Assembly (NCBI GenBank): GCA_004347965.1
Contig: QNVF01000001.1
Location: 43,724 to 107,723, forward strand
DNA from: Candidatus Nezhaarchaeota archaeon WYZ-LMO8
GTDB taxonomy: Archaea; Thermoproteota; Methanomethylicia; Nezhaarchaeales; WYZ-LMO8
Length of the DNA stretch: 64,000 nt
Reading direction: 5' to 3'
Shown: positions 4,336 to 22,009 of the stretch, in pieces
Numbering within the stretch: position 1 is the first letter of the stretch
Layout of the letters: each line of letters opens with the position of its first letter
The notes under the pieces: model-generated
Told to the model about the DNA's origin: nothing
The model's input: only the letters and a program-made list of their open reading frames with translations
Databases searched by the model: none
Position numbers and translations under genes: made by a program

Positions 4336-4364
4336 AACGCTAAAGGCTCTTTGGTGAAGAGAAC

Positions 4365-5168: not shown

Positions 5169-5176
5169 TTTCAAAT

Positions 5177-5809
5177 TTGAAGGCGAAAACTTTGATTTCT
5201 CTTATTGTGTTAGCTGCAGGTTCATCAATAAGATTTGGTAGAAATAAATTGTTGGAGAAAATAGGTGGAATCTCCATAATTGAAAGGGTAGTTAAGAGCG
5301 CTGTCTCTTCAAAAGCTGATGAAGTTGTAGTCGTACTTGGATATGAGTCAGAAAAAATTAGAGCGGTTCTTAAGAATTTTAATTGTAAGTTTGTGTTTAA
5401 TGAGAACTTTAGAGAAGGGCAAAGCTCCTCTGTTAAGGCTGGAGTTAGATCTGTTATGGGATACGCTGACGCGGTGATGATACTTCCAGGGGATTTGGCA
5501 TTGATTACACCAGCATCTATTAACAAAGTTATTGAAGAATATGAGAAAAGCGGAGCCCCGGTAGTAGTTGCAAGTTATAGAGGATTTTTAGGACACCCAA
5601 TACTCTTCGATAAATCACTTTTTAATGAAATAATGAAAATAAGTGAGGAGAAGGAGGGCTTAAAGGCTATTGTAAACCAATATAGGGATTTAATAAAGAA
5701 AGCGGAAGTAAACTCAGATGAGGTCTTAATTGATATTGATTATGAAGAGGATATTTTAAAAATTCTCCATCGTTTTCAATCATTTAATAAAGGCTTAATT
5801 GAAAATTAA
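5177..5809 (+). CDS. MobA/MocA-like molybdenum cofactor nucleotidyltransferase (probable CTP:molybdopterin cytidylyltransferase)
   Basis: N-terminal LAAGSSIRFG-NKLL motif of the MobA-like NTP transferases. Apparent TTG start. Co-located with the Mo-hydroxylase genes. Confidence 0.7.
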   Translation: MKAKTLISLIVLAAGSSIRFGRNKLLEKIGGISIIERVVKSAVSSKADEVVVVLGYESEKIRAVLKNFNCKFVFNENFREGQSSSVKAGVRSVMGYADAVMILPGDLALITPASINKVIEEYEKSGAPVVVASYRGFLGHPILFDKSLFNEIMKISEEKEGLKAIVNQYRDLIKKAEVNSDEVLIDIDYEEDILKILHRFQSFNKGLIEN

Positions 5810-5961: not shown

Positions 5962-7203
5962 TTGGAAGATGGTGATTTATTCGGCTTAATTCAGGCGAAG
6001 GTTTGGAGAAGCAAGTTTTCACCTTCACCTGAGCTTCCGGAGGAAGAATATCAAAGAAAGCCCTTCATATTTGATATTGAAACACATGTGTGGGATGGAA
6101 GACATAGATCGAGGGTCCCGCTACTGGATGATTTTCTAAAAGGCGTCGAGTTAAGGGTTGCATGGTACCGAATGGAGAAGGAATGTGACCTCACGCACAT
6201 AACTTTAGACCGATATATGCGTGAGTTATACGTGGAAAGTGAGTGCGACATGGCTTTTGTTTGCTCACTTCAGTCCTTTGGAGTAAGAAAGCCGGAGATA
6301 GAACGCTATATAGCTGAACCTGAAGATGTAGCAGCAGCTCAGAAAGCGTACCCCCATAGAAATATTGCTGCAGGATTGATCGCTCCTGTAATTGCGGGAG
6401 ATGAAGGAATAGAGTATATCGAATACCAAGTGAGGAGACTTGGTATAAGAGTCTGGTCAGAGACTTATAACTATGTACGGAGACCCAATGCGCCTCGCGG
6501 GCAACGTGTGGTGAATTGGCGTTATGACGATGAAAAACGCGTATATCCTATCCTAGAAAAGCTTGTTGAACTAAATGCCCCCATTCTTTGTCTCTCGGGC
6601 CCCCGTCCTGGTGATGGAAGATGTGACTGGAGCGACGTTGATATTGCCGCTAAAAACTTTCCAGAGTTAACCTTCATAATTTACCACTTTGGAGGGATAT
6701 ATTACAAGTCCGCTGCGCATGCCGCTGCCAGCAATAAGAATGTTTTTATAGGATGGAATGTGAAACATGATCCACTTCGGAGCGTGCCAGAGCGATACAT
6801 AGAACGCTTTGGCGAAATCTTCGCGATTACTGGTCCAGAAAAGATTGTATGGGGCACAGATTGGCCAGCAACTGGGTATATGCAATTTCAGATAGAGATG
6901 TGTAAGGCTTTTCAATTTCCAAAAGAGATAAGGTTGAAGTATGCATTGCCAGAACTTACTGAGAAAGATAAGAGAAGAATGTTTGGCTTAAACATGGCTG
7001 AGATTCTCAAGAAACACGGCTTTATAGAGAGCCTTGAGGAGCATCTTAAGAAGATAAGGGAAGACGAATTTAGTCGAGAAGCCGCCAGAATCTTACCCAC
7101 GCTTAAGGCGAAATACAAGAAATTACTTATGGATTTGCATCCATGGTGGAGAGATCAGGAACACTGGTTAATTTGGAAATATGAAGAGAGCCCCTTTCAA
7201 TAA
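5962..7203 (+). CDS. Amidohydrolase-2 family (TIM-barrel metal-dependent hydrolase/decarboxylase) protein
   Basis: FDIETHVWD metal-binding motif near the N-terminus and WGTDWP near the C-terminus. The N-terminal ~30 aa and the start codon are uncertain. Confidence 0.65.
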   Translation: MEDGDLFGLIQAKVWRSKFSPSPELPEEEYQRKPFIFDIETHVWDGRHRSRVPLLDDFLKGVELRVAWYRMEKECDLTHITLDRYMRELYVESECDMAFVCSLQSFGVRKPEIERYIAEPEDVAAAQKAYPHRNIAAGLIAPVIAGDEGIEYIEYQVRRLGIRVWSETYNYVRRPNAPRGQRVVNWRYDDEKRVYPILEKLVELNAPILCLSGPRPGDGRCDWSDVDIAAKNFPELTFIIYHFGGIYYKSAAHAAASNKNVFIGWNVKHDPLRSVPERYIERFGEIFAITGPEKIVWGTDWPATGYMQFQIEMCKAFQFPKEIRLKYALPELTEKDKRRMFGLNMAEILKKHGFIESLEEHLKKIREDEFSREAARILPTLKAKYKKLLMDLHPWWRDQEHWLIWKYEESPFQ

Positions 7204-7352
7204 GATAAGTCAATTTTACTTTGATCTGCAATAAGGAGGAGCAATAGGCTCCCTTTAATTTATCTCCAACTATGCCGAAAGAATTAAATATGTTACATAT
7301 ATTGCTTATGAGTATACGTATAATGGTTATCCCTCAAAAAGAGGGTTGGTCC

Positions 7353-8396
7353 ATGATAATTGATATAGATATGCATTGGCTTCCAGAGAATCTGTTTTCT
7401 GATAAAAAATTGTTAAGGCAGCTGCTAGAGATTGTTCCACGGGCTTACGGTGAGTATGCCTCAGTTACCACGATACCTGGAACCGATAAAATGCAAATAA
7501 TTATAGAGAAGCCAAAGGGATATGTAAACCTAAATTACACCGAACTTGATGTAAGTCCTAGCAAGAGATTGGAGGATATGAAAGAAGCTGGCGTTGATAA
7601 AGCAATTCTTAGGATAACCTGCTGGCAAGAATGGTTAACGTTAGACTTATGTAAAAAGTTTAATGATCTTTTAGCAGCCTACATAAATGAGCACGCTGAT
7701 AAATTTCTAGGTCTTGCCGTTGTGCCTCCATGGGGGAATGAAGAATCCCTTGAGGAAATGGATAGGTGCATTAAGGATCTTGGGTTTTCAGGAATACAAT
7801 GTGTTGCCCGTTATGGAACGCTTTACTTAGATGAAGAAGAGTTTAGACCGTTCTTCAAAAAGGTTAATCAGCTTGGCGTGCCACTAGTTGTTCATCATAC
7901 CCCGCTACCGGTGGAATACAATAGCATTTATAAGTACACTAATCTCCGTCGGCAATATGGAAGATGTATGGTTCAAATGATATCCTTAAGCAGGATTCTT
8001 TTCAGCGGATTGCTTGATGATTTTCCTAACCTGGTATTGATTTTCACAATGTTGGGAGGAGGCTTCTTTGCCTATACTAAAATGCTTGCAGGGGAAAGAT
8101 CAAAAACATGGGAGGAAATTGAGCGTTTCGACCCAGCAGCTGAGAAAGTCAGAAAATATTTGGATAAGAACATTTACTTTGAGCTTACCGCACCAACTAT
8201 CTGGTCAAAACATCAACTAGAGTGTGCTGTGAAAGAATTGGGTGCAGATCATATCTTATTCGGAAGCGGTTATCCTGTTAGACGAGAATGGCTGCTTAAA
8301 GGCGTGGAGTATATTAGAAGTCTAGACGTAAGTGAAAAAGAGAAAGAACAAATTTTAGGTGAGAATGCCATCTCTCTTTTTAAAATAAAGGTTTAA
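7353..8396 (+). CDS. Amidohydrolase-2 family protein
   Basis: MIIDIDMHW motif at the N-terminus and HILFGSGYP near the C-terminus. ATG at 7353 preceded by GAGGGT 7 nt upstream. The ORF track's longer start at 7272 is probably upstream read-through. Confidence 0.65.
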   Translation: MIIDIDMHWLPENLFSDKKLLRQLLEIVPRAYGEYASVTTIPGTDKMQIIIEKPKGYVNLNYTELDVSPSKRLEDMKEAGVDKAILRITCWQEWLTLDLCKKFNDLLAAYINEHADKFLGLAVVPPWGNEESLEEMDRCIKDLGFSGIQCVARYGTLYLDEEEFRPFFKKVNQLGVPLVVHHTPLPVEYNSIYKYTNLRRQYGRCMVQMISLSRILFSGLLDDFPNLVLIFTMLGGGFFAYTKMLAGERSKTWEEIERFDPAAEKVRKYLDKNIYFELTAPTIWSKHQLECAVKELGADHILFGSGYPVRREWLLKGVEYIRSLDVSEKEKEQILGENAISLFKIKV

Positions 8397-8516: not shown

Positions 8517-9269
8517 ATGACGAATAACCTCATCTTAAAGACGGAGGGTTTAAGTAAATCCTTTGGTGGGATTAAAGCGTTAGATAACGTTTCTGTAGAC
8601 GTCAATAAGGGCGAAGTTATTGGCATTATTGGACCTAATGGTTCAGGAAAAACAACGCTTTTTAGGCTCATAATGGGCATTTATAGGCCGGACTCCGGAA
8701 AGATTATTTTTGAAGGAGAAAATTTGACTGGTCTACCCTCCTATCGTGTATGTCAGAAAGGAATTGCACTTGCACATCAGATTCCAAAGCCCTTTTCAAG
8801 GCTAACAGTAATGGAGAACCTTTTAGTGGCAGCTCTTTCTGGTGGAAGAATGACTAGAAAAAGTGCAGAAGAATATTGTCAAACAGTGTTAAAACTTACC
8901 GGGTTATATAAAGTTAAAGATAAGCTTGCCGGAAGTTTATTGCCCCTTGAACTTAAAAGGCTTGAGATCGCTCGTGCACTTGCCTCAAAGCCTAAGCTTA
9001 TACTTCTTGATGAACCTGCAGCCGGGATGCGTGAAAAAGATGTAGATGAGCTACTAGAGATTATTAAGTTAATAAATTCCGAAGGTGTGACGGTTATGCT
9101 AGTTGAGCACAGAATGGAGGTTGTTGTTAAAGCTGTAGAGCGTTTAATTGCTTTAAACCGGGGAACCATTGTAGCGCAGGGTCCTGTAAAGGAAGTTATG
9201 AACTCCAAAATTGTTTCAGAGATTTATCTTGGCAGAAGGTTTCGTGAGTATGTCGGAGCTTCTACTTGA
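8517..9269 (+). CDS. livG: ABC transporter ATP-binding protein, LivG-like (branched-chain amino acid / hydrophobic substrate importer)
   Basis: Walker A GPNGSGKTT, signature and Walker B motifs. First of a G-F-H-M-K gene set. Confidence 0.85.
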   Translation: MTNNLILKTEGLSKSFGGIKALDNVSVDVNKGEVIGIIGPNGSGKTTLFRLIMGIYRPDSGKIIFEGENLTGLPSYRVCQKGIALAHQIPKPFSRLTVMENLLVAALSGGRMTRKSAEEYCQTVLKLTGLYKVKDKLAGSLLPLELKRLEIARALASKPKLILLDEPAAGMREKDVDELLEIIKLINSEGVTVMLVEHRMEVVVKAVERLIALNRGTIVAQGPVKEVMNSKIVSEIYLGRRFREYVGAST

Positions 9270-9966
9270 ATTAAAAGATATCAGCGTATCTTACGACGAA
9301 ATACAGGTTATATGGGATGCCAATTTAAATATTAAAAGAGGTGAATGTGTCTCTCTCATTGGTGTAAATGGTTCTGGAAAGACTACTCTTCTTAAGACAA
9401 TAGCAGGCGTTGTCCATCCATTCGAGGGTGAAATATGGTTTAAAGGAACCATTAGAATAGATAAACTTAGTGCACATCAAATAGCTGCTTTAGGAATAAT
9501 TTATGTTCCAGAGGGTCGTAGAATTTTTACTAAAATGACTGTAAAAGAAAATCTATTGGTTGGAAATCATCTTAAAAAAAGTAAAAGAAAAGAGATGTTA
9601 CAGAGAGTATACGAACTTTTTCCAGTTCTAAAAGAAAGGGAGAATCAGATGGCTGGCACGCTTAGCGGTGGTGAACAGCAGATGTTAGCTATTGCTAGAG
9701 GCTTAATGGCGGATCCAGAAATTTTGTTGCTAGATGAAATCTCATTGGGATTATCCCCCATAGTCGTAGAACAGCTTTACGAAAAGATAAAAGAAATAAA
9801 CGAACAAGGGGTCAGTATTTTGGTTGTGGATGAGATCCCCTTACGTTGTCTACAAGTTAGCCATAGGGGCTATATCATTAGGTCAGGGCGGATAGTTTTT
9901 GAAGGGGATAGTAGTGATTTATTAAATAACAAAGACCTTAGGAAAATATACCTTGGTACTGATTAA
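9250..9966 (+). CDS. livF: ABC transporter ATP-binding protein, LivF-like
   Basis: Walker A GVNGSGKTT, LSGGEQQ signature. ATG at 9250 with GAAGGT upstream. The ORF track start at 9211 is likely read-through. Confidence 0.8.
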   Translation: MSELLLELKDISVSYDEIQVIWDANLNIKRGECVSLIGVNGSGKTTLLKTIAGVVHPFEGEIWFKGTIRIDKLSAHQIAALGIIYVPEGRRIFTKMTVKENLLVGNHLKKSKRKEMLQRVYELFPVLKERENQMAGTLSGGEQQMLAIARGLMADPEILLLDEISLGLSPIVVEQLYEKIKEINEQGVSILVVDEIPLRCLQVSHRGYIIRSGRIVFEGDSSDLLNNKDLRKIYLGTD

Positions 9967-9981
9967 TTTGGAGAGGATGAT

Positions 9982-10851
9982 ATGGCTCCGCCTGAAGTAA
10001 TATTGATGGGCACGTTTACTGGCGCGATTTATGGGCTGATAGGTATCGGTTTATCACTAATCTTTACCGGCATACGAAATATGATCAATCTTGCACACGG
10101 ACACTTAGCTGTATTGGCAGCTTATTTAGCTTTAACTTTAAGCAGTAATTCTATGCTTGACCCTCTCATCTGTGCTTTGTTGGTTGTTCCTATAGTTTTT
10201 GCCTTAGGAGCTATCATACAGTATGGGGCTGTAAATAGGTTGATATATAGGTCGCCTACAATTCCGTTAATCCTCTTTGCAGGAATAGCTTCTATTATTG
10301 AGAATGTTGCGCTTTTAGTATGGCATCCTGATCCAAGAAGCCTAGCCCCTCTAGCACCTTACTCTCTCTTGACGGTATCTCTTCTTGGCGTACGATTGCC
10401 TTTGATTTACCTGGTTGGATTTTTAATAAGCCTTGGCAGTATGCTTATTCTTTATACGTTTCTTAAGCATACGGATATCGGGAGAGCTATAAGAGCAGCT
10501 TCAGAGGATCCCGAGTATGCTGAATGCTTAGGAGTAGATACCAAAAAAATTTATGCTTATACTTTTGGCATTGGTGGAGCTTTGGCAGCCATTGCAGGGA
10601 TTATGGTGGGCTTAATTTACCTTTTCGTTCCATCTGATGGCTGGCCTTATACAATCCTTTCATTTGGTGTCATAGTGCTTGGTGGTGTAGGTAGTATGAG
10701 AGGAGCGTTTGTTGGGGGTGTGATTTTAGGCATCTCTCAACAACTTTCTGCCTATTACCTAGGTGTTGCATACCAATATTTCGTCGGTTATATCTTAATA
10801 TTAGCTGTACTTGCTCTGAGACCTCAGGGAATATTTGGTATGAGGGTGTAG
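9982..10851 (+). CDS. livH: ABC transporter permease, LivH-like
   Basis: Multi-pass hydrophobic protein in operon context with the Liv-type ATPases. Confidence 0.8.
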   Translation: MAPPEVILMGTFTGAIYGLIGIGLSLIFTGIRNMINLAHGHLAVLAAYLALTLSSNSMLDPLICALLVVPIVFALGAIIQYGAVNRLIYRSPTIPLILFAGIASIIENVALLVWHPDPRSLAPLAPYSLLTVSLLGVRLPLIYLVGFLISLGSMLILYTFLKHTDIGRAIRAASEDPEYAECLGVDTKKIYAYTFGIGGALAAIAGIMVGLIYLFVPSDGWPYTILSFGVIVLGGVGSMRGAFVGGVILGISQQLSAYYLGVAYQYFVGYILILAVLALRPQGIFGMRV

Positions 10852-10855
10852 TGGT

Positions 10856-11785
10856 GTGGACAAGAAGAACAGATATATTATTGGAAGCTCCATAGTAGCG
10901 ATAGCCCTACTTACTTTAGCACCATATTTCATCCCACTTTATTGGATGGCTTTCCTGTTCTTCTGCTTTATATATTTAGTTCTTACTGAGATGTGGGTTT
11001 TGGTTGCAGGTTTTACTGGAATGGTATTGTTAGGTATCGGGGGGTTTGTTGGTATCGGAGCCTATTCCTTCGTTATTTTCTCTACTTGCCTAAATTGGCC
11101 TCTTTGGCCAAGTCTGATACTTTCAGGGATTATTGGGGTTATCATCGCGTTGGCTGTGAGCTCTACGATCTTTAGAATGAGGGGAGCGTATTTTGCAATG
11201 AGCACCTTGGTGATCGCAAATGCCCTTTTTGCATGGTTTTCAACATGGTCCTATACGGGAGGCGGAGCTGGAATAGTTGTTAACGTTAAGCTTCCAATTG
11301 CAATAGTTTACCATATTGCGCTTATATTAGCATTTGCCTCAATAATTATCGTAACTTTTGTTGTGAGAAGTAATCTTGGTTTAATGCTCAAAGCTATAGG
11401 AAGTGACGAAGATGCCGCTTTAACGGTAGGCGTAAATACTTATACTTGCAAGTTGTATTGTTTTCTTATCGCAAGCTTTATGATTAGTTTAGCTGGAGCC
11501 ATATATTTTCTCTATCCAGGATTCGTTACACCAGACGCAGCTTTTTCCCCCATATGGCTTATTAATACACTTACGGCGGCATCTGTTGGAGGCTGGACAA
11601 ATATTGGAGGAGCTATAATTGGGGTCATATTTATTATCACGTTACAACAATTTTTCTATGTAAATTATCCTGGCTTATCAATGTTGATCAATGGTATAAT
11701 AATAGTGGTCATCTTCTTGATATCTCCTAGGGGGTTATGGCCCGCAATTCGCAGTCTTATTGAAAAAAGATTAAAAAGGTTCTGA
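10856..11785 (+). CDS. livM: ABC transporter permease, LivM-like
   Basis: Multi-pass hydrophobic protein, paired with the preceding permease. Confidence 0.8.
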   Translation: MDKKNRYIIGSSIVAIALLTLAPYFIPLYWMAFLFFCFIYLVLTEMWVLVAGFTGMVLLGIGGFVGIGAYSFVIFSTCLNWPLWPSLILSGIIGVIIALAVSSTIFRMRGAYFAMSTLVIANALFAWFSTWSYTGGGAGIVVNVKLPIAIVYHIALILAFASIIIVTFVVRSNLGLMLKAIGSDEDAALTVGVNTYTCKLYCFLIASFMISLAGAIYFLYPGFVTPDAAFSPIWLINTLTAASVGGWTNIGGAIIGVIFIITLQQFFYVNYPGLSMLINGIIIVVIFLISPRGLWPAIRSLIEKRLKRF

Positions 11786-11863
11786 AAAGCTCTTTGAGAG
11801 TAAGGTCTGGCTAAAAGTTTTAGTAAGTTTTATAAAATAAGAGCATTTTAATACTAAAGCAAT

Positions 11864-13177
11864 ATGAAGGGTATAGCTAGAGGGAATGGTATGCCTTGTT
11901 GTAGGTCTGCGATAACCAAGGTTCAGGGTGCGGTCATCGCCATCATCGCCATCATTATTGTTGCAGCTTTGGTTTCAGGCATATATTACTATTATACGAG
12001 CATCCCGACACCAACGCCTCCTCCACCAGAGAAGATCAAAATTGGGATGATAGCCTCCCTCTCCGGCGGTCTAGCAACTGTTGGGCGTTTGCAGAAAATA
12101 ACAATAGAAGAGGCGGTCAAGATGATAAACAGCGAGGGAGGAGTATTCCTAAAACAGTATCAGGCTAAGGTACCAATAGAACTAATCATATACGACGACG
12201 AAAGTAACCCGGCAAGGGCAACAGAACTCGCCGGACGCCTAGCAGCCGAAGGAGTCGTCGCAGTAATCTGCTGCAGCTACGCTCACATAGTTACCCCAGC
12301 AGCAAAAGTCACAGAACGATACGGCATTCCCTTACTAAACGGAGGAACTCCAATAGAATTTGTTGCGGCGGCAGGTCCATGGAACTATACATGGAGCTAC
12401 GGCATGTCGTACAAAAAAATCATAGATGACTTCTTAGCCTTCTTAGAAGGCTATAAAAACAGAACAAACATGAAATTTGCCGTCATATTATCTGATGATA
12501 TTATTGGGCGGACACAGAAAACACTGCTTGTTCCTGAACTTGAAAAGAGAGGGTACTCAGCCTTTGTTCCGGATCTCTATCCACCAGGAACAACTGATTT
12601 TACTGCATTAATAACGAAAATGAAGGAGGAGAAGTGCGAAATACTTTGGATGCATGGTACTGCACCTACATTTGCTACCTTCTGGCGTCAATGTCTCGCA
12701 TTGGGATACAAGCCTAAGATAATTTATCAGTCTGGAGGTTTAGCGCGACTAGAAGAGGTACAAGCTTTAGGTGGGGATCTGGCATTGGGCGTAATAACAT
12801 TCTTATGCTGGCATTATGATTATCCATTTCCAATGAGCAAAACATTTAGAGAGATATGGACAAAATACCTAGTTGAGAAGAACATAGACCTCTCACCGGT
12901 AGCAGCCTACTACTTTACAGTCCCATTCATACTAAAGGATGCGCTCGAGAGAGCCGGTAGCCTAGACAGAGAAGCACTCAACAAAGCTATAGGAGAAACA
13001 AAAATGATTGGAGCACCAGGACCAGTATCATTTGACTCAGTAACCCACGTAGGGACAGGCTACATGTGCTTAGGACAATGGATGAAAACAGAATACGGCA
13101 CATGGATCCTCCAACCAATATGGTCAAAAGAAGTACCAGAAGTAAAAACAGTAGAACCAATATTCCCACTTCCATAA
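11864..13177 (+). CDS. Substrate-binding protein, type I periplasmic-binding fold (LivK-like), with an N-terminal TM anchor and Thr/Pro linker
   Basis: N-terminal hydrophobic helix, TPTPPPPEK linker, then a PBP1-like domain. Last gene of the ABC operon. Confidence 0.75.
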   Translation: MKGIARGNGMPCCRSAITKVQGAVIAIIAIIIVAALVSGIYYYYTSIPTPTPPPPEKIKIGMIASLSGGLATVGRLQKITIEEAVKMINSEGGVFLKQYQAKVPIELIIYDDESNPARATELAGRLAAEGVVAVICCSYAHIVTPAAKVTERYGIPLLNGGTPIEFVAAAGPWNYTWSYGMSYKKIIDDFLAFLEGYKNRTNMKFAVILSDDIIGRTQKTLLVPELEKRGYSAFVPDLYPPGTTDFTALITKMKEEKCEILWMHGTAPTFATFWRQCLALGYKPKIIYQSGGLARLEEVQALGGDLALGVITFLCWHYDYPFPMSKTFREIWTKYLVEKNIDLSPVAAYYFTVPFILKDALERAGSLDREALNKAIGETKMIGAPGPVSFDSVTHVGTGYMCLGQWMKTEYGTWILQPIWSKEVPEVKTVEPIFPLP

Positions 13178-13270
13178 ACACCCCCATTTTTACTTAACAA
13201 AGCTGCTCTAAAAAGAACAAGTTTATGTACATATCCGATGATTTTTTGCCTTCTATTAGAGGTTTAGGAT

Positions 13271-14134
13271 TTGAGAAAACGTAACCTGATTTTTCTATTT
13301 TGTATGGTCATTATGCTTAGCTCTACATGGCCGGCAATGAAGGTTGCATTAATGTTTGTTAGTCCTCTTATTTTCCTTATGCAAAGATGTCTTCTGGCCT
13401 CAATGGTACTTCTACCTCTCATAGCTTTTTTGAATAAAAAATTTCCAACTGATGGAAGAACATGGCTTCATCTTTTTATATACAGCATAATTATAGCCAT
13501 TGGCATGACCATGTCTACCATCGGTTTAGTGTATGAAACTACCGGGTTAAGCTCTCTTTTAACTTGTACCCACCCAATATTTGTTTTCTGTTTAGCTAAA
13601 CTCTTTCTTAAAGAAAGAGTTACCCCAAATAAAATTTTTGGGATGTTGCTAGGCCTTTTAGGTATAATCATACTTTATGCCGAAAGAATTTCGTTTGCTA
13701 CTAGATCTATCTCTCCAATTTTATTACTAACTTCAGGGGCTTTTCTTTGGGCGGTTTCCATGGTCTATTTTAAAAAGTTTTTAAAGAATATAGATCAATT
13801 ACTCGTGACATGCATTCAGTTCTTCTTTGTATTCATTATTATTTTTGCGGTAACATTAATGTTCAATGAATTAACTTTTCCAATTAATCCACCTATACTA
13901 TATATCCTCTCTCTCCTCTACACGTCAATTGTCGGAATGGCTTTAGCGATAGCTTTAATGCTGTCTATCTTAAAAGAAGAAGAGACAATAGTTGTGTCAG
14001 TTTCAAGCCTTATTGTCCCGGTACTTGCAACATTTTTCGGTTGGATCTTTCTACATGAAACTGTAAGTTTCTTCTCTTTCTTAAGTTTCATATTCATATT
14101 AGCTGGCATATACTTAGTTAATAAGGAACGATAA
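13271..14134 (+). CDS. EamA/DMT-superfamily transporter
   Basis: About 10 TM helices in two repeated halves, typical EamA topology. Confidence 0.7.
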   Translation: MRKRNLIFLFCMVIMLSSTWPAMKVALMFVSPLIFLMQRCLLASMVLLPLIAFLNKKFPTDGRTWLHLFIYSIIIAIGMTMSTIGLVYETTGLSSLLTCTHPIFVFCLAKLFLKERVTPNKIFGMLLGLLGIIILYAERISFATRSISPILLLTSGAFLWAVSMVYFKKFLKNIDQLLVTCIQFFFVFIIIFAVTLMFNELTFPINPPILYILSLLYTSIVGMALAIALMLSILKEEETIVVSVSSLIVPVLATFFGWIFLHETVSFFSFLSFIFILAGIYLVNKER

Positions 14135-14202: not shown

Positions 14203-15153
14203 TTATAGTCCTATTGTCTTCTCATATCTTAATCTAACTTCTTCAGAGGGCAGGAACTTCTTCTCATATTCTTGTATCTTGTCATATCCTGTGAAGTCAA
14301 ATAGTTTTTTCAGGCCAAATAGTGGGTGGTTTTTATACTTATTCTCAAAATCAATCTGTGCCTGTGTTCCTCTCTTCTTAAGATCTTGCAAATAATCCCA
14401 AACAGCGATTACCGCTGGCTCTAATGACGATCCTGGGAATACAACAATAGCTATTCCTAACTCTTGGCATTCCTCAAGTGATAACCTGGGATGAAGCCCG
14501 CTTGGATGGTACAGCATTGGCGCTCCAACCTCTTTAACGGCCCTCTCTATTTCTTCTTTACCTTTCTCTATGCCTAAGCCGTCAGCAAAGACTACATCAG
14601 CTCCCGCTTCGGCGTAAGCTTTCATTCTTTTTATGGCCTCATTTAATCCTCCACCCACAGCATTTCTCGCATCAGTCCGGGCAATTAAAACAAAATTAGG
14701 ATCTTCATCCTCTATCACTTTTTTAGCAGCCTTAATTTTTCCTATCATCTCCTCCATTGGTATTACCATTTTTCCCTTCAACATTCCACATCTCTTGGGC
14801 ATTACCTGGTCCTCTATATGGATTGCTGCCACTCCAGCCTTTATGTAATCTCTTACTGTGCGCATCACATTAATTGCATTGCCATATCCATTATCAGCAT
14901 CAGCGATTACTGGAACACTCACAACATCCACTATGTACTTTGCATTTTGTATCATCTCTGTTGCGGTTATTAGATTAACATCACACCACCCTATTCTTTC
15001 CATCGATGTACAGCCTCCAGAAATATAAATTGCTTCAAAGCCTACAGCCTCAGCGATCCTTGCAAAAAGTGGGTTATGAGCGCCCGCAGCCACTATCATC
15101 TTCTCGCGATAATTATCCAACATCTTCCTAAATTTTGCTGTCATACTTGTCAT
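14203..15153 (-). CDS. Isocitrate lyase / PEP mutase family enzyme (methylisocitrate lyase / carboxyvinyl-carboxyphosphonate phosphorylmutase-like)
   Basis: ICL/PEPM family signature around IHIEDQVMPKRCGMLKGK. About 300 aa TIM-barrel length. Confidence 0.8.
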   Translation of the reverse strand: MTSMTAKFRKMLDNYREKMIVAAGAHNPLFARIAEAVGFEAIYISGGCTSMERIGWCDVNLITATEMIQNAKYIVDVVSVPVIADADNGYGNAINVMRTVRDYIKAGVAAIHIEDQVMPKRCGMLKGKMVIPMEEMIGKIKAAKKVIEDEDPNFVLIARTDARNAVGGGLNEAIKRMKAYAEAGADVVFADGLGIEKGKEEIERAVKEVGAPMLYHPSGLHPRLSLEECQELGIAIVVFPGSSLEPAVIAVWDYLQDLKKRGTQAQIDFENKYKNHPLFGLKKLFDFTGYDKIQEYEKKFLPSEEVRLRYEKTIGL

Positions 15154-15403: not shown

Positions 15404-15838
15404 ATGAGTCTATTTGCGCGAAGAGAAGAAATTCCAGAAAAAATGAGGGGGCACGTAATTGTTACTGGAGAAACATTGATGATGCAGATTGTGACCATAG
15501 TGCCAGAACCAGGCAAAGAAGAGGTTCCACCTCATCGACATAACGAAGAGCAGCTAGGATACATATTAGAGGGAGAATGCGAGCTTGAAGTGGAAACAAA
15601 TCATCCTCCCACAGCCAATTGGGGCTCTTGCCCAGACAAGTTTGCGGGACAACCTTCTGAAAAGCGTATACTCAAAGCGGGAGACTTCTTTAGAATACCT
15701 GCGGGGGCTCTTCATAGGCTAAAAATACTTGGGAACAAGCCTGTGTCTTGGATAGCCGCATACCATCCCGTTAGACCTGACTATCTGCCTAATGCAATCA
15801 AGCTTGAATCTAAACATAGACCACTGCCATTTAAATAA
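15404..15838 (+). CDS. Cupin-domain protein
   Basis: Small beta-barrel cupin motifs (PPHRHNEEQLGYILEG ... GALHRL). Confidence 0.5.
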   Translation: MSLFARREEIPEKMRGHVIVTGETLMMQIVTIVPEPGKEEVPPHRHNEEQLGYILEGECELEVETNHPPTANWGSCPDKFAGQPSEKRILKAGDFFRIPAGALHRLKILGNKPVSWIAAYHPVRPDYLPNAIKLESKHRPLPFK

Positions 15839-15967: not shown

Positions 15968-17692
15968 ATGGTTAAGGTTTTAGAAACTGATGTTTTAGTG
16001 ATAGGAAGTGGTGCAGCGGGTCTTTGGTCAGCTATTAAAGTATTTGATTCTGGAATTGACGTGATGATAATAACAAAGGGAATGCTATCCCGAAGCGGGT
16101 GTTCACGTCTCTCTGGCTTTCATTGGGGACCCTACAACCCAGAAAATATCTCTTTAGCCGATATAGATCATTTAGGTACTCATATCAGATTATTTAACAG
16201 CAAGATACTGCGCTCCATACTTGAATATAGTCCAGTGGTTGTTAGAGAATTAGAGCGGCTTGGAATATACTGGAGACGAAGGTCTGATGGCAAAATTGCT
16301 GAACATAAGCCAGACATACCTTATCCACTAGCATGGAAAGCCGGTGAAACTGGTCAAAGAGTTATGGACATTTTATATAGTGAAACTTTACGCAGAGGAA
16401 TTAACTTCATAGAAGATACTATGGCAACTTCATTATTGCTGTCTAATGGTCGATGTGTAGGCGCTACAGCTCTAAATTATATGAGAGGCGAATTTTTCGT
16501 GATAAAGGCAAAAGCCACGATCCTTGCAACCGGGCATCCAGGGGTATATCGCTATAGCACCCAGTCAAGAGAGAATACCGGAGACGGCATCGCTATGGCC
16601 TATAGATGCGGTGCCGAAATTGTTAACATGGAATTCCAGCACTGGCATCATAGTGACACGCAATATCCCGAGTCTGCTAGGCGACTTGTACATAACGTAC
16701 CCTCATGGTCAGAATGCTTCTTTGGGAAGGAATTCTTGGCGAAATTTAAGGGTATCCCAGAGGGTACTGAAGTTTGCACTATTGTGGATAAGGAAGGAAG
16801 AGATGTTATGAAAGAATTGAAAAAACTTGCGGCAACTGTCGACACATTTCATTCTCCGAGTGTTCAACAAATAATAGCTCTACTCTATGGGAAGAGAGGA
16901 GGACTATTTATGCGCTACAACCAGGCAATATTAAAGACCGGCGTACTTGCCGACTCGTTTTATAATTATAGGCCACTCACCAACTTTTATCATCTAGAAA
17001 AGGAATTAGTGCCCCTTGGAACAACTGCACACACCCATGCTGGAGGGGTTAGGATAAACGAGAGATGTGAAACCACTATACCAGGTCTCTATGCCGTTGG
17101 TGGTGTAGCTGGTATTTATCCAACGGTTCTCACCTGTCTATGGGGTGGAGCTACGGCTGCTAAGTATGCTGCGGAAATAGTTAGAAAAACACCATCACCC
17201 GAATTAGATTGGAGTCAAGTGGAGGCTGAAAAAGAAAGAGTTGAATCCTTTTTAAGGTTAAAGCCGAGCGACGGCTTCACCCCACTTCAAATACAGAGGA
17301 AAATAAGAGATTTGATGTGGGATAAAATGTGGATAATAAAGACCGTTTCTGAAATGAAGGAGGCTCTTGTGGAGCTATCGAGAATTGAAAAGGAGCTTGT
17401 TCCAAAGATGGGCTTAGAGACTACTGTAAAGTCTGGCAACTTTGGTTGGGCGCATGCCTTAGAAGTAATTAATATGATCACCGTTTGCAGGCTCATGATA
17501 TGGGCGAGCCTTACACGCAAGGAGACACGCCCCCCTCATATAGTTAAGGACTACCCCAGACAAGACGATGAAAATTGGCTAAAGATCGTAGTCTTGAAAT
17601 ATAAACCCGATAGACCTGATGAGCCGGAGATAAAAATTGAGCCTCTTTCTGATCCTGCCTATTTATATTTAAGCAGTAGAGGGGGACATTAG
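15968..17692 (+). CDS. FAD-dependent flavoprotein of the succinate dehydrogenase/fumarate reductase (SdhA/FrdA/TfrA) family
   Basis: N-terminal dinucleotide fold VLVIGSGAAGLWSA, HTHAGGVRIN (the H-x-H-MGG equivalent) and GLYAVGGVAG. No obvious covalent-FAD histidine motif. Confidence 0.75.
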   Translation: MVKVLETDVLVIGSGAAGLWSAIKVFDSGIDVMIITKGMLSRSGCSRLSGFHWGPYNPENISLADIDHLGTHIRLFNSKILRSILEYSPVVVRELERLGIYWRRRSDGKIAEHKPDIPYPLAWKAGETGQRVMDILYSETLRRGINFIEDTMATSLLLSNGRCVGATALNYMRGEFFVIKAKATILATGHPGVYRYSTQSRENTGDGIAMAYRCGAEIVNMEFQHWHHSDTQYPESARRLVHNVPSWSECFFGKEFLAKFKGIPEGTEVCTIVDKEGRDVMKELKKLAATVDTFHSPSVQQIIALLYGKRGGLFMRYNQAILKTGVLADSFYNYRPLTNFYHLEKELVPLGTTAHTHAGGVRINERCETTIPGLYAVGGVAGIYPTVLTCLWGGATAAKYAAEIVRKTPSPELDWSQVEAEKERVESFLRLKPSDGFTPLQIQRKIRDLMWDKMWIIKTVSEMKEALVELSRIEKELVPKMGLETTVKSGNFGWAHALEVINMITVCRLMIWASLTRKETRPPHIVKDYPRQDDENWLKIVVLKYKPDRPDEPEIKIEPLSDPAYLYLSSRGGH

Positions 17693-17693
17693 T

Positions 17694-19235
17694 ATGAATA
17701 GTGGCTCCACGGTCAGAGTCAGGGTTTTCAGATACCATAAGGGTATGGACAAGCCTAGATATGAAACCTATGAAGTCCCGCGCCTTCCAAAAATGACTGT
17801 TTTAGATGCATTAGAGTACATAACGGAGGTTCTCGGAGTTGATTTAGCTTATCGGAGTAGCTGTGGAATAATGCGGTGCGGGCAGTGCGGTGTTTTAGTT
17901 AACGGTAAGGCTGTCCTAGCATGCCAACATAAGATAGAAACTGATGAGATAACAGTTGATCCATTGCCAAACTTCCCTATAATAAGGGATCTTGTTGTGG
18001 ACTTCAGTCAAGCTCGAAACGATCTTCAAAGGATACTCCATTTTGTTAGAGGAAAAGCTGCAGAATTTCCGGAGCCCATTGATGATGAGAAGATGAAGAA
18101 GGTACGAGATTTCTCTCAGTGCATTGAATGTAGACTCTGTATGAGCGTTTGTCCAATAATCACAGGATATAAAGAGTGGCTTGGACCTACCTTTTTCGTA
18201 TGGGTTTCAAGATTTAACATGGATGTACGTGATGCCGCCAAAAATATGCGCCTAGAAAAAATAAGGGACGAACTTTGGTACTGTGCTGCATGTGGTTCAT
18301 GTGAGATTATTTGTCCGTGGGAAGTACCTGTCTGGGAGGGAATTAACGAGTTACGTAGTGAAGTTGTAGAGAGCGGCTTTATACCTAGGACGCTTAGGGT
18401 GGCTCTAACAAACGTAATTAACTATAAGAATCCATGGGGTCTTCGTGGAAAAAGAGATCAATGGGCTCAGGGTATGAAAATAAAGAGGCTGCCCGGTGAG
18501 AAGGCTGATGTACTCTTTTTTGTGGGATGTACAGCTTCATATGAAACAAGAGTTCAAAATGTCGCTCGAGCTGGAGTTATGGTTCTTGAGAAGGCTAATG
18601 TTGATTTTGGTATTCTCGGGGACTATGAATCCTGCTGTGGTGAACCGTTTCTGAGAATTGGTGAAAAGGGTCTTTTTGAATTGCTGGCTAATGAGAACAT
18701 AGAGAACTTCAAAAGATGTGAGGTAAAGACAATCGTTACAATATGCCCGCATGCATACGACGTATTTACAAAGGAGTATCCCAAACTTGGCATTTCATTC
18801 ACAGCTTTGCATCACACGCAATTTCTCTCTGATTTAATAGATAGAGGTAAACTGAGGATTGCTAGGAGGTTAGATAAAGTAGTTACATATCATGATCCAT
18901 GCTTTCTCGGAAAACGTAACAAGATCTTCGAAGCACCTAGAAAGATCCTAGAGAGTATTCCAGGGATAAAACTTGAGGAAATGCCCAGAAATAAAGAAAA
19001 CAGTTTTTGCTGTGGTGGAGGTGGTGGCAGAATGTGGTTTGAGGAAAGCTCGTTAAAGGTGAAGGAGAGTCCATGCGTTATCCGCGCTAAGGAGGCTGCT
19101 GAGCTTAAACCAGATATAATAGTGACTGCCTGTCCATTCTGCCTAACAAACCTTGAGTACGGCGTCAAAGTGATTGAAAGGGAAAACGAAATCCAAGTAA
19201 TGGACATAATGGAGCTACTGACTAATGTGATTTAA
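17694..19235 (+). CDS. Fused iron-sulfur (SdhB-like 2Fe-2S + 2x[4Fe-4S]) and CCG-domain (HdrD/SdhE-like) subunit, TfrB-like
   Basis: SdhB-like N-terminal 2Fe-2S region (CGIMRCGQCGVLVNG), ferredoxin motifs CIECRLCMSVCP / CAACGSCEIICP, and two CCG motifs (ESCCGEP, SFCCGGGGG). Start 2 nt after the flavoprotein stop. Confidence 0.75.
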   Translation: MNSGSTVRVRVFRYHKGMDKPRYETYEVPRLPKMTVLDALEYITEVLGVDLAYRSSCGIMRCGQCGVLVNGKAVLACQHKIETDEITVDPLPNFPIIRDLVVDFSQARNDLQRILHFVRGKAAEFPEPIDDEKMKKVRDFSQCIECRLCMSVCPIITGYKEWLGPTFFVWVSRFNMDVRDAAKNMRLEKIRDELWYCAACGSCEIICPWEVPVWEGINELRSEVVESGFIPRTLRVALTNVINYKNPWGLRGKRDQWAQGMKIKRLPGEKADVLFFVGCTASYETRVQNVARAGVMVLEKANVDFGILGDYESCCGEPFLRIGEKGLFELLANENIENFKRCEVKTIVTICPHAYDVFTKEYPKLGISFTALHHTQFLSDLIDRGKLRIARRLDKVVTYHDPCFLGKRNKIFEAPRKILESIPGIKLEEMPRNKENSFCCGGGGGRMWFEESSLKVKESPCVIRAKEAAELKPDIIVTACPFCLTNLEYGVKVIERENEIQVMDIMELLTNVI

Positions 19236-19328: not shown

Positions 19329-20657
19329 ATGGTTTTTCATAAAGCAAGTGATATAATCATCGTGGGTGCTGGAACTGCTGGGCTTTCGGCAGCCGTTAGA
19401 GCTAAAGAAGTGGATCCAAATGTTCAGGTAGTTGTTTTAGAGGCAATGCCAACATATGCTAGCAGCCTTCTTATGAAGCCATATTTTGCCCTAGGTTTCC
19501 CAGATGAAGAGTGGTATCGTGAAGGCGTGAAAGCAGGTGGAGACCCTGAATTATGGAAGGTTTATACAGAACGCGGCCGCTGGCTTTATGAGTGGTTAAA
19601 AGAAAAAGGTATTCGACCAATAGATGACGAGAAATGGGAAACGTTGCGGAGAAAACATGAAGTTCCTGGAAGACAGATCATCGAAGTTTTTGATAAGATT
19701 GCTAGAGAAAAAAATGTGGAGATATTATTTAATCACAGGGCAACCAAGCTAATTACGCAACCTGAAACTAGAAGAGTTATAGGCGTTAGAGTCCAAACGA
19801 GGATAGGAGAAGTTAGATTTAAAGCTAAGAGAGCAGTGATCTTGGCAACCGGAGGGTTTGGGCGTAATGAGGAGCTGATAAAGGAGTTTGGCCCATGGTG
19901 GATTGGATGTATTCCGATTGTGCCTCCAGGGCACCAGGGAGACGGGTTAAAGATGGCTTTAGATATTGGAGCGGCAACTAAGTATATAGCTGGGGCGGTC
20001 GTGCCCTCACGAACTGTTTGCGTAGATAACAAGCAGATAACACATATGGATACAGCAGGATCCATTGCGGTTGATCCCCGCGGAAAAAGATTCGTCGATG
20101 AATCAGATCCATTCTATGGTACCATGACCAAAAAATGTTTAGAGATGATTCCAGAAAAATACTTCTACATAGTTTTTGATGAGAAGATAAGGCTAGATGC
20201 AAAGCTAGAATACGAAAAGCCAGTAATTTATAAGGGAAATACTATTGAGGAGCTCGCGATGAATGCGGGAATAGATCCGAAGGGACTTAGAGAGACTATA
20301 GAGAAGTACAATCATGATTTAGAAACTGTAGGATATGACACGGTATTTGGGAGAAAGTGTATATGGCAAGGAGCTGACCCAAGACCCCCGCCAAAGATAG
20401 ATACTCCTCCATTCTATGCTATTAAGGTCACAGGATCTTTTACTTCATTTAAGGCAGGGATCCGAATTAACAGTAAAGCTCAAGTGTTAACTTGGTTCAA
20501 TGAAGTCATACCTGGACTATATGCTGCAGGTGAGGTAACAGGTGGTCTCTTCTATAAGGGGTATTATCATCCAAATCCGTCTATGGTAACAAGTGCTATG
20601 ATATTTGGATGCATCGCCGCTGAAAATGCTGTAAAAGAGTCACCCATTGACTGTTAA
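19329..20657 (+). CDS. FAD_binding_2 family flavoprotein (soluble fumarate reductase / KstD / TcuA-like dehydrogenase)
   Basis: IIIVGAGTAGLSAAVRA dinucleotide fold, ATGGFGRN, and C-terminal PGLYAAGEVTGG motif. Confidence 0.7.
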   Translation: MVFHKASDIIIVGAGTAGLSAAVRAKEVDPNVQVVVLEAMPTYASSLLMKPYFALGFPDEEWYREGVKAGGDPELWKVYTERGRWLYEWLKEKGIRPIDDEKWETLRRKHEVPGRQIIEVFDKIAREKNVEILFNHRATKLITQPETRRVIGVRVQTRIGEVRFKAKRAVILATGGFGRNEELIKEFGPWWIGCIPIVPPGHQGDGLKMALDIGAATKYIAGAVVPSRTVCVDNKQITHMDTAGSIAVDPRGKRFVDESDPFYGTMTKKCLEMIPEKYFYIVFDEKIRLDAKLEYEKPVIYKGNTIEELAMNAGIDPKGLRETIEKYNHDLETVGYDTVFGRKCIWQGADPRPPPKIDTPPFYAIKVTGSFTSFKAGIRINSKAQVLTWFNEVIPGLYAAGEVTGGLFYKGYYHPNPSMVTSAMIFGCIAAENAVKESPIDC

Positions 20658-20716
20658 TCCTAACATTCGCTAGCTAACTTTTATGGTTTTTAAAATTACA
20701 GCGGTTGGTGGTTAGG

Positions 20717-21604
20717 ATGATAATCGATTCCGAAACTCATCCCATAGGCATTAATAATAGAGGTGAGGTTATGAATTTCTGCGCAAAGCTTCTAATGTAC
20801 ATGGATCAACGTGGTGTGGACGCTGCTTGTGTTCTTCCAGCACCTGTAATGGGCTGCAATGTAGCGGGAAGAATAATTGAGCAAGCCACTAAAATAGCTC
20901 CTAAGAGATTAATCCCATGGTGCCGACTTTTTTACAGAGAGCCAGTTTTACCGAACCCTTGGACCTTATCTCCATCTCTGGAAGAAGAGAAGGAAAGAGC
21001 TCTAGAGGAACTAGAGGAAATGTTGAAAAGTGGAGTATTTAAGGGTGTAGGCGAACTTGATTTTACTGAAACTGGTTGCGAGGACCCACGTGACTCAGTA
21101 AAAATGTTTTATCCATTTATGGACATAGTAGCTAAGTTCAAGGTTCCTGTTCACTTTCACACGGGTTTTGGGAAAGGACCTTGGATGTACTATGATCCTA
21201 TGCTGTTTGACACTATAGCTGATAGATATCCTGAAATACCACTAATTATAGGTCACAGTGGAGGAATGTTGCCTCACTTTGGAGAGGTTTGCTTTGCATT
21301 AGCAGTGAGATATGATAATGTCTTTCTTCAGGTTGCAAACATTGACCTCATAATGTGTGAGTCCGGAAGAAGGCTCTTCAAAAAATTCATTAGAAAGGCC
21401 CTAAAGACCTTCAGAGTAGGCGCTGAAAAGCTGATTTTTGGATCTGATATTAGACCAAGCGAGTTAGTGGGAGATACACCAGAAGCGCGTAGGCGTGAAG
21501 GGGTAGCCAGCATGACAATCGAAGTCTTAAAAGAGGTTAAGATGAGTGAGCAAGAACTCTTACTTATTCTAGGCGACAACCTTAAGAAACTTCTGAAAAT
21601 ATGA
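20717..21604 (+). CDS. Amidohydrolase-2 family protein
   Basis: MIIDSETHP N-terminus and IIGHSGG motif. ATG at 20717 with GGTGGTTAGG upstream. Confidence 0.6.
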   Translation: MIIDSETHPIGINNRGEVMNFCAKLLMYMDQRGVDAACVLPAPVMGCNVAGRIIEQATKIAPKRLIPWCRLFYREPVLPNPWTLSPSLEEEKERALEELEEMLKSGVFKGVGELDFTETGCEDPRDSVKMFYPFMDIVAKFKVPVHFHTGFGKGPWMYYDPMLFDTIADRYPEIPLIIGHSGGMLPHFGEVCFALAVRYDNVFLQVANIDLIMCESGRRLFKKFIRKALKTFRVGAEKLIFGSDIRPSELVGDTPEARRREGVASMTIEVLKEVKMSEQELLLILGDNLKKLLKI

Positions 21605-22009
21605 TCTCACTTAAGCATATGCTTTAAAGCACTTACTTCTTTTGATCATTTTGATTTTAAAATAACCAAAGCCTATGTTTGAAAATATAGCATTATACTA
21701 GTCTACTAGTTATACTCCTTAGAGCTTGATGAGATCATAGTAATACCAGGACTATGCTAGTAATATCTTATAATCGGTTATTTTGTGAAGGAGGTTAAAA
21801 GTTAAAAATCATGAGCCGATTCTATTTAGATCTCTATTTTGAACTAAATGCCAGCTTTAAGGGTCACTGATAGGGCTTTTAAGCTTTAAATACTGTTATA
21901 ATTTGATAAACTTTTACAAAGTGAAGAGCTTCTGCAGGGCAATGGATGACGCATGCAGGAAGTAAACCTCTTTCCATTCTATGTATATATTGCGCACAAA
22001 GTATGCTCT

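Follow-up and report, generated by a model that had tools for sequence, protein, structure and literature searches.

A soluble archaeal enzyme built like thiol:fumarate reductase, with fumarate-site residues replaced, in a conserved catabolic gene cluster

Results

The gene pair and the architecture of its products

Here we describe two adjacent genes, A and B, in a 64,000-nucleotide (64 kb) stretch of the archaeal contig QNVF01000001.1, referred to below as the window. Together they encode a soluble two-subunit flavin adenine dinucleotide (FAD)/iron-sulfur (Fe-S) enzyme, built like the thiol:fumarate reductase (TfrAB) of methanogens:

15968..17692, + strand: subunit A, 574 aa; complex-II-fold FAD flavoprotein with an apparently re-tooled active site (Pfam, NCBIfam, alignments, AlphaFold2 (AF2)/Foldseek, dN/dS)
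17694..19235, + strand: subunit B, 513 aa; SdhB-type Fe-S module fused to an EtfD/HdrD-like double CCG module (Pfam, NCBIfam, alignments)

The two open reading frames (ORFs) coincide exactly with the limits 15968-19235 given in a preliminary description of this DNA. The start codon of B lies 1 nt past the stop of A, and a Shine-Dalgarno-like GAGGGGGA sits within the 3′ end of A. A TATA-like TTTATATTTAA is visible by eye about 40 nt upstream of A, which is also preceded by the motif GAGGGGGG. The host had been taken for a crenarchaeon; this does not hold in the strict sense, as the database protein with 100% identity carries the label 'Candidatus Bathyarchaeia archaeon'.

The domain composition bears out the TfrAB-like architecture that the preliminary description had proposed. 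Subunit A, which has the SdhA/FrdA fold, matches FAD_binding_2 (E 1.5e-38, 133.5 bits) and Succ_DH_flav_C (3.2e-21, 76.1 bits), both above the gathering score. Subunit B joins an SdhB module to two CCG domains, with Pfam matches to Fer2_3 (1e-26), the 4Fe-4S dicluster domain (5.7e-11) and two CCG stretches (1.2e-31). It scores 186 bits on TIGR00384 dhsB (cutoff 88), with all 12 cysteines of a three-cluster subunit present, and its motifs comprise the CxxxxCxxC...C set, two CxxCxxCxxxCP and two CCG motifs (C57/62/65/77, C143/146/149/153, C197/200/203/207, C279/314/315/351 and C403/439/440/480/483). TfrAB itself is a soluble enzyme in which a fumarate-reductase module is combined with a thiol-dehydrogenase module bearing two CCG domains (PMC2754724), and B is collinear with TfrB over its full length (residues 6-513 on 3-488 of 488), at 338.4 bits against an NCBIfam cutoff of 385. 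Fused SdhB-CCG proteins are not rare: they form more than 100 clusters at 90% identity, with many members in metagenome-assembled genomes (MAGs) of Bathyarchaeia, Asgard and Nezhaarchaeota, and some already carry the NCBI name TfrB.

As the preliminary description held, the pair has no membrane anchor. Neither A, B nor the flanking soluble genes contain a transmembrane helix (no 19-residue window was hydrophobic enough), no ORF corresponding to SdhCD or to separate SdhE and SdhF was present in the 13-23 kb part of the window, and the small hydrophobic ORFs close to A and B each overlap a real gene in another frame. The type E succinate:quinone oxidoreductases of Sulfolobus and Acidianus (SdhABEF) resemble the pair in that a second 4-Cys motif replaces the 3-Cys motif and a CCG protein stands in place of the transmembrane anchors (PMC2754724); in the window, by contrast, the CCG module is fused to SdhB, there is no SdhF-like gene and the flavoprotein lacks the covalent-FAD histidine.

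Subunit A has lost most of the fumarate site

Five residues hold fumarate in Escherichia coli FrdA, three in the flavin domain (H232, H355 and R390) and two in the capping domain (T244 and R287). Of these, R287 donates the proton, and H44 serves as FAD ligand (PMC5773532). An alignment of A with its relatives, the E. coli proteins SdhA and FrdA and two flavoproteins partnered with fused B subunits, L008A (from a Bathyarchaeia MAG) and L009A (from a MAG labelled Nitrososphaeria), was used to map these positions. Methanogen TfrA entered the comparison through the score of its NCBIfam model. The following lines give the FrdA residue, its state in A and its state in E. coli SdhA/FrdA, L008A and L009A:

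H44: G44 in A; H in the others
H232: kept in A as H227; H in the others
T244 / E245: lost from A; T / E in the others
R287: T290 in A; R in the others
H355: kept in A as H355; H in the others
R390: removed from A with a nine-residue loop; R in the others

All seven residues are thus present in each of the four canonical sequences. L008A also passes the subfamily models (892 bits on NF004724, cutoff 826; 808 on TIGR01812, cutoff 567), and so does L009A for TIGR01812 (804 bits). Subunit A does not. Its best match is to the TfrA model, at 212.1 bits (cutoff 718), and consists of two stretches that leave out the capping domain. It scores 204 bits on NF004724 and 200 bits on TIGR01812, and falls more than 350 bits below the cutoff of every SdhA, FrdA and TfrA model. 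Judged by its sequence, A is not a fumarate/succinate enzyme, and the fumarate/succinate-type substrate suggested by the preliminary description is not supported; nor is the pair a canonical SdhAB, its flavoprotein being non-canonical. Given the loss of the residues that bind and reduce fumarate, A/B has probably been repurposed for a catabolic pathway.

The suspected absence of the covalent-FAD histidine was correct, G44 and C45 occupying that place: A reads R-S-G-C-S, against R-S-H-T in SdhA/FrdA. Two alignments place the conserved C45 differently, the larger one on the His column and the other beside it. The same pattern of losses is common to all close relatives and to a bacterial tier at about 33% identity, and the combination 'Cys, no R287, no R390' (hereafter 'no-Arg') occurs in approximately 36 of the 115 top relatives of A. 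A search of plasmids for a characterised bacterial homologue returned only haloarchaeal megaplasmid genes annotated 'FAD-binding protein'. One such protein is encoded next to an SdhB-like partner on a plasmid of Haloarcula sp. GH36 (L021:8893-11413), in a catabolic context of UxaA-family hydrolases, an Ldh-family oxidoreductase, an argininosuccinate-lyase-like gene, TAXI-TRAP and IclR genes; it keeps the equivalents of E245, R287, H355 and R390 and has Cys at the position of the FAD-linking His. The replacement of this His by Cys thus seems, from the alignments, to recur in this part of the superfamily.

The fold of A is well predicted. Its AF2 model (pLDDT 87, pTM 0.91) matches complex II flavoproteins in Foldseek with TM scores of 0.77-0.82 at about 20% identity. 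Against orthologues that are 80-83% identical, dN/dS is 0.05-0.07, with dS near saturation. This ratio indicates that A is under purifying selection and, together with the confident model of the complex II fold, that it is not decaying. There is precedent for such a fold acting on non-fumarate substrates with non-covalent FAD in L-aspartate oxidase and in the alpha subunits of the adenylylsulfate (APS) and phosphoadenylylsulfate (PAPS) reductases, the methanogen PAPS reductase alpha subunit being the second-best sequence match of A in the PDB. These proteins differ from the pair in having either no Fe-S subunit or a small ferredoxin-like one, and they are only about 20-23% identical to A.

The capping segment of A (aa 225-352), searched alone, found just 2 strong clusters among 1.84 billion representatives, so that the substrate lid is almost confined to one small clade, made up of sequences from Bathyarchaeia, Jordarchaeaceae and MSBL1. 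The subfamily conserves a hinge motif, W-H-x-S-D...E-S-A-R-R-L-V-H, and the family conserves four basic residues in hinge and cap (R238, R239, K309 and R310). Residues 517-524 of A (window 17516-17539) read R-K-E-T-R-P-P-H; all other aligned sequences, including the 83% identical orthologues and E. coli SdhA/FrdA, read R-K-E-S-R-G-x-H.

The CCG module of subunit B combines EtfD and Hdr/TfrB features

For residues 192-511 of B, the best solved relative is the EtfD of Mycobacterium smegmatis (PDB 9OJN, 9ojn_A; 210 bits, 38.7% identity), and the identity to methanogen TfrB (from Methanobacterium and Methanomicrobiales MAGs) over the same region is 30-33%. Overall confidence in the AF2 model of B is low (pLDDT 65), the Fe-S half being weak, and the model was used only to rank the CCG half, where pLDDT reaches 80-90; with it, Foldseek also prefers EtfD (E 4e-22) to HdrB (about 1e-8). 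Like EtfD and the HdrD-like modules of TcuB, GlpC, LutA and GlcF, B associates a 4Fe-4S dicluster with two CCG domains. It differs from EtfD in having neither a transmembrane domain nor heme, its N-terminal half being SdhB and not a membrane domain.

Two clusters, one a linear [3Fe-4S] and the other a noncubane [4Fe-4S], are bound by the CCG domains of EtfD. The coordination of the noncubane cluster is completed by His583, which renders it non-catalytic, and the clusters form a wire from the flavoprotein ETF (electron-transfer flavoprotein) towards menaquinone (PMC13083937). Subunit B has all five Cys ligands of this second cluster (C403/439/440/480/483, aligned with C637/672/673/709/712) and the completing His (H353, aligned with H583). 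The first CCG motif accordingly ends in C351-P-H353-A354, close to C581-P-H583-C584 of EtfD and distinct from C-A-G-C of methanogen TfrB (P0358, P0352). The signature of the linear [3Fe-4S] cluster (Thr for the second Cys, plus Cys584) is not found in B, which keeps C314-C315 where EtfD has Thr539 at the place of Cys315 and has A354 in place of Cys584; the first cluster of B therefore need not be a linear [3Fe-4S]. By sequence, the CCG module of B is a hybrid of EtfD and Hdr/TfrB features.

These features bear on the electron donor, which the preliminary description had taken to be a low-molecular-weight thiol on account of the CCG domains. The proposal stands in so far as the Cys-Cys pairs are kept, and is weakened by the greater closeness of the CCG half to EtfD and by the EtfD-type His in C-P-H-A. 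Since this half is closer to EtfD than to TfrB, thiol chemistry is not assured, and a thiol donor cannot safely be read from CCG domains here.

The Fe-S cysteines of B are invariant among its relatives except C351, a Cys that the canonical group has three residues later (S-P-H-C). The canonical L008 and L009 pairs have the same gene order and the P-H signature in the first CCG motif, and their B subunits are 41% and 51% identical to that of the window, respectively. They differ from the window pair in flavoproteins that keep all seven residues and pass SdhA/FrdA subfamily cutoffs, and in neighbours of the propionyl-CoA carboxylase type or encoding ETF and acyl-CoA dehydrogenases, not the cupin/lyase/amidohydrolase set described below. 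At L009 (4244-9566), the canonical flavoprotein and its fused SdhB-CCG partner, which has the same EtfD-like P-H signature as B, are divergent from ETF alpha and beta and several acyl-CoA dehydrogenase genes. Together with the similarity to EtfD, this context gives a hint that the L009 pair may carry electrons from ETF to fumarate instead of depending on a thiol.

The identity of B to its counterpart at L003, where the flavoprotein is divergent, is only 36%. As B is more similar to the partners of canonical flavoproteins than to L003 B, the two subunits have incongruent histories, and the novelty lies in A. L003 (292-3505; also L004, L016 and L019) belongs to another Bathyarchaeia lineage and encodes a 'no-Arg' flavoprotein 43% identical to A; its B subunit passes the TfrB equivalog cutoff (525.7 against 385 bits) and has a C-P-G-C motif. 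Divergent flavoproteins therefore occur with both classes of B.

What separates the pair from TfrAB and from complex II is thus the flavoprotein, together with one CCG signature. A further difference from TfrAB lies in the setting: the window pair is part of a catabolic cluster, and tfrB stands alone, not beside tfrA, in the two methanogen contigs examined. On the strength of the TfrAB architecture, the electron chain of A/B probably works like that of Tfr or complex II.

The pair lies in a conserved catabolic cluster

The genes from 411 to 21604 form one block, which supports the catabolic-island setting of the preliminary description. Around A and B it contains:

411..5809, + strand: xanthine oxidase-family molybdenum (Mo) hydroxylase (2Fe-2S, Mo cofactor and FAD subunits), with XdhC and a MobA/MocA-like cofactor gene
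5962..8396, + strand: two Amidohydrolase_2 proteins, one of 413 aa and one of 374 aa; the latter resembles the aromatic-acid decarboxylases LigW, gamma-resorcylate decarboxylase and ACMSD
8517..14134, + strand: LivGFHMK-type ABC importer (five genes) and an EamA-family transporter
14203..15153, - strand: C-C lyase of the phosphoenolpyruvate (PEP) mutase/isocitrate lyase superfamily, divergent, 88-89% conserved in all four loci compared below
15404..15838, + strand: small metal-binding cupin, 144 aa, with HxH...E...H motifs, directly upstream of A in all four loci
19329..20657, + strand: second flavoprotein of the fumarate reductase (FRD) superfamily, 442 aa, flavocytochrome c3 (Fcc3)/TcuA-like, following B in three of the four loci
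20705..21604, + strand: Amidohydrolase_2 protein, 299 aa, last gene of the unit

The solved relatives of the lyase are, in rank order, 2,3-dimethylmalate lyase, carboxyvinyl-carboxyphosphonate phosphorylmutase and methylisocitrate lyase, and searches of solved structures gave no substrate-defining match for the cupin, the substrate-binding protein or the first amidohydrolase. The second flavoprotein scores 163 bits on the TcuA model and has neither a cytochrome nor a flavin mononucleotide (FMN) domain. As it lacks the equivalents of H365, R402, H504 and R545 of Shewanella Fcc3, both flavoproteins of the cluster are non-canonical. The rest of the window, which is made up of housekeeping genes, contains no ETF, Hdr or quinone-biosynthesis genes, and no genes for coenzyme M (CoM) or coenzyme B (CoB) were seen within the 64 kb.

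The core of the cluster, a PEP-mutase-family lyase divergent from cupin-A-B, is found in all four Bathyarchaeia loci compared (the window, L013, L014 and L015). Among these, only L014 lacks the second flavoprotein after B. A Mo hydroxylase of the same family adjoins the pair in the window and in L014. Other redox enzymes stand at that place elsewhere, namely a tungsten-type aldehyde ferredoxin oxidoreductase in L015 and a pair of the dimethyl sulfoxide (DMSO) reductase family in the Jordarchaeaceae locus L001. The link to Mo hydroxylases extends across lineages, from the window and L014 (Bathyarchaeia) to L006/L007, L017 and L018 (Armatimonadota). Bacterial 'no-Arg' flavoproteins go with an unfused SdhB-like protein, in some cases together with a CCG protein that is likewise separate, and in three contexts their neighbours include IclR regulators, xanthine oxidase-family Mo hydroxylases and hydantoinase/amidohydrolase genes; one bacterial 'no-Arg' locus showed no link to Mo hydroxylase, IclR or amidohydrolase genes. 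When GTDB species genomes and JGI metagenomes were scanned with an alignment of the close family, each yielded only two loci, all from Bathyarchaeia and none of them new.

The FAD subunit of the Mo hydroxylase (3337-4335, + strand) carries a Cys-rich insertion at about aa 118-170 with six cysteines (NLCQDVQCWYY...FHCLRKGGNVCYAV...GKGCVAVCPSD). It aligns in a single stretch only with the model of the beta subunit of 4-hydroxybenzoyl-CoA reductase, the others being split at about residues 120-157. The beta subunit of that reductase holds an extra [4Fe-4S] cluster in such a Cys-rich loop, and by analogy the insertion would suggest a ferredoxin-coupled or reductive enzyme.

Several further features of the window deserve mention. 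The 1.2 kb gap past the cluster holds, at about 21950-22200 on the - strand, a frameshifted and stop-interrupted remnant of a 4Fe-4S ferredoxin-like gene (...CKRCGNPSYAKVCPTNAVIKRDNGIVH.. / ..NPELCIGCKA.. / ..CPFAAIAFN), which may once have encoded a Fer4_11-type beta subunit; an intact example precedes the Jordarchaeaceae L001 pair. A YcaO gene and, after it, a TfuA-like gene overlap slightly at 55299-57190 (+ strand), a pairing linked to thioamidation of the peptide backbone. An acyl-CoA dehydrogenase gene at 47628-49663 (+ strand) overlaps by 4 nt a gene of the acetoacetate decarboxylase family, an unusual pairing. Finally, a GMC-oxidoreductase-like protein of 423 aa (30492-31763, - strand) shows a short 4Fe-4S motif match in its N-terminal domain (aa 136-155).

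Discussion

What does the pair do, if not reduce fumarate? We lean, with moderate confidence, towards a non-fumarate oxidoreductase that serves its conserved catabolic cluster. Electrons would pass from FAD to the [2Fe-2S] cluster, the two [4Fe-4S] clusters and the clusters of the double CCG module, or in the reverse direction. Subunit A has presumably been re-tooled for a substrate that is neither fumarate nor succinate. Its chemistry would still be of the FRD type, with a hydride and a proton being added to, or removed from, a C=C bond in conjugation with a carboxylate or a ring carbonyl. The substrate class that we would propose is a hydroxylated (hetero)aromatic or branched-acid intermediate, which the A/B step would make ready for hydrolytic ring opening or decarboxylation and then for cleavage by the lyase.

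Anaerobic pathways for heterocycles and phenols, such as nicotinate fermentation, typically proceed through hydroxylation by water, which releases two electrons, ring reduction, which takes up two, hydrolytic opening and lyase cleavage. The gene set of the cluster (hydroxylase, FRD-like reductase, amidohydrolases and dimethylmalate-type lyase) fits this logic by analogy, and if A/B is a reductase, it could re-consume the electrons freed by the co-encoded hydroxylase. A role specifically as ring or enoate reductase is a more tentative suggestion, and one that we think could well prove wrong. A literature search on 6-hydroxynicotinate reductase yielded no sequence-level information, and to our knowledge that enzyme is not FRD-like. 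PicB, of the four-component 6-hydroxypicolinate monooxygenase, had been taken up as an Sdh-like lead and was dropped, being published as a Rieske oxygenase.

Several observations weigh against such a role in the catabolic cluster. The Mo hydroxylase is absent from L015, from L003 and, within the contig examined, from L013; because it is missing from several loci, the link to it is not obligatory. Succinate is a frequent product of the family to which the neighbouring lyase belongs, and would be a fitting substrate for a true succinate dehydrogenase. The alignment of the capping domain is uncertain, and the conserved R238, R239 and R310 could rebuild a dicarboxylate site. In B, the Cys-Cys pair is kept in both CCG motifs, as in Hdr and TfrB, and the AF2 model is of low confidence. 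Moreover, we know of no characterised member of the 'Cys, no-Arg' class.

The second issue is the electron partner. We favour exchange through the EtfD-like CCG module with a protein, a flavoprotein or ferredoxin, over a thiol of the CoM/CoB type, because of the EtfD-like signature of B, the TcuA/TcuB precedent and the adjacent, domain-poor flavoprotein. An extension of this idea would make B a wire between two flavoproteins, the Fcc3/TcuA-like protein at the CCG end and A at the SdhB end, so that the electrons from oxidising one intermediate of the pathway would go straight into reducing another, with no free carriers. The neighbouring flavoprotein, which has no electron-transfer domain of its own, matches the TcuA model and follows B in three of the four loci; TcuB is the FADH2:quinone oxidoreductase of TcuA (PMC10468695), and in EtfD the CCG clusters have been proposed as the place where electrons arrive from a flavoprotein (PMC13083937). 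The EtfD-like CCG half of B, with its cluster-completing His, and the ETF and acyl-CoA dehydrogenase genes beside the related canonical pair at L009 point the same way. However, this is an argument by analogy throughout, and the second flavoprotein is not downstream of B in L014, in L003 or in the bacterial loci. We hold the wire to be an unlikely arrangement, albeit one worth keeping in mind. A fuller version, in which A, B (with its five Fe-S clusters) and the Fcc3/TcuA-like flavoprotein form a self-contained three-protein redox shuttle for a (hetero)aromatic or branched-acid pathway, linking two differently specialised flavoenzymes, and A may hold its FAD through the conserved Cys, is slightly less likely still. 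We know of no Cys-FAD linkage in the complex-II-type flavoprotein family.

Could A instead have kept a dicarboxylate substrate through other residues? A divergent succinate or alkyl-succinate dehydrogenase, oxidising the dicarboxylate released by the adjacent lyase, would account for the divergent lyase gene in all four loci, as the solved relatives of this enzyme release succinate, propionate or similar acids, and for the MmgE/PrpD-family gene that adjoins the related pair in L004. The kept equivalents of H232 and H355 and the basic residues R238, R239, K309 and R310 of hinge and cap could contribute to such a site. It would nevertheless have to be rebuilt, as the arginines that clamp the carboxylate and shuttle the proton are gone, the R390 loop having been deleted and not substituted, and the capping domain has no detectable relatives outside its tiny clade. 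We regard this reading as improbable.

A genuine thiol:fumarate reductase, in which A reduces fumarate to succinate while the CCG domains of B oxidise a low-molecular-weight thiol pair, is what the best NCBIfam matches would indicate (TfrA, 212 bits; TfrB, 338 bits and collinear over the full length). The Cys-Cys pairs of both CCG motifs, the missing membrane anchor and the published description of TfrAB as a soluble two-module enzyme with two CCG domains (PMC2754724) agree with it. But A lies 500 bits under the TfrA cutoff and B is also below its own, T244, E245, R287 and R390 are missing, B has C-P-H-A for the C-A-G-C of TfrB in a CCG half nearer to EtfD, and the 64 kb window contains neither CoM/CoB nor Hdr genes, so that we consider it very improbable. 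That the pair is a decaying, non-functional paralogue of canonical TfrAB or SdhAB, as the lost catalytic residues and the R-K-E-T-R-P-P-H stretch peculiar to the window might suggest, is scarcely credible in view of the intact ORFs, the low dN/dS, the conserved Fe-S ligands, the confident fold, the conserved synteny and a residue pattern maintained from Bathyarchaeia to bacteria.

We thus return to a non-fumarate oxidoreductase of the catabolic cluster. To our reading of a limited part of the literature, a repurposed complex-II-fold flavoprotein combined with an SdhB-CCG fusion has not been described, and what we put forward on its class of substrate, on which way the reaction runs and on its electron partner is inferred. 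Our analysis shows that uncultured archaea possess at least two classes of Tfr-shaped enzyme, one with the canonical fumarate site and the other, represented by the window, with this site replaced and set in a conserved catabolic cluster.

Annotation pipelines label such proteins 'FAD-binding protein', 'succinate dehydrogenase iron-sulfur subunit' or 'heterodisulfide reductase-related', and metabolic reconstructions of Bathyarchaeia could miscount them as fumarate reductase or as steps of the tricarboxylic acid cycle. The EtfD-like CCG signature calls for caution in treating all SdhB-CCG fusions as thiol-dependent, and suggests that CCG modules may generally serve flavoproteins as docking wires. 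Bathyarchaeia are reported to degrade recalcitrant organic matter. If the second class does act on hydroxylated heterocycles or on aromatic-acid intermediates, it would represent a new anaerobic ring- or enoate-processing enzyme. In conclusion, the main value of this analysis is that it corrects a likely mis-annotation as fumarate reductase and draws attention to an uncharacterised class of enzymes tied to Mo-hydroxylase pathways in both archaea and bacteria.

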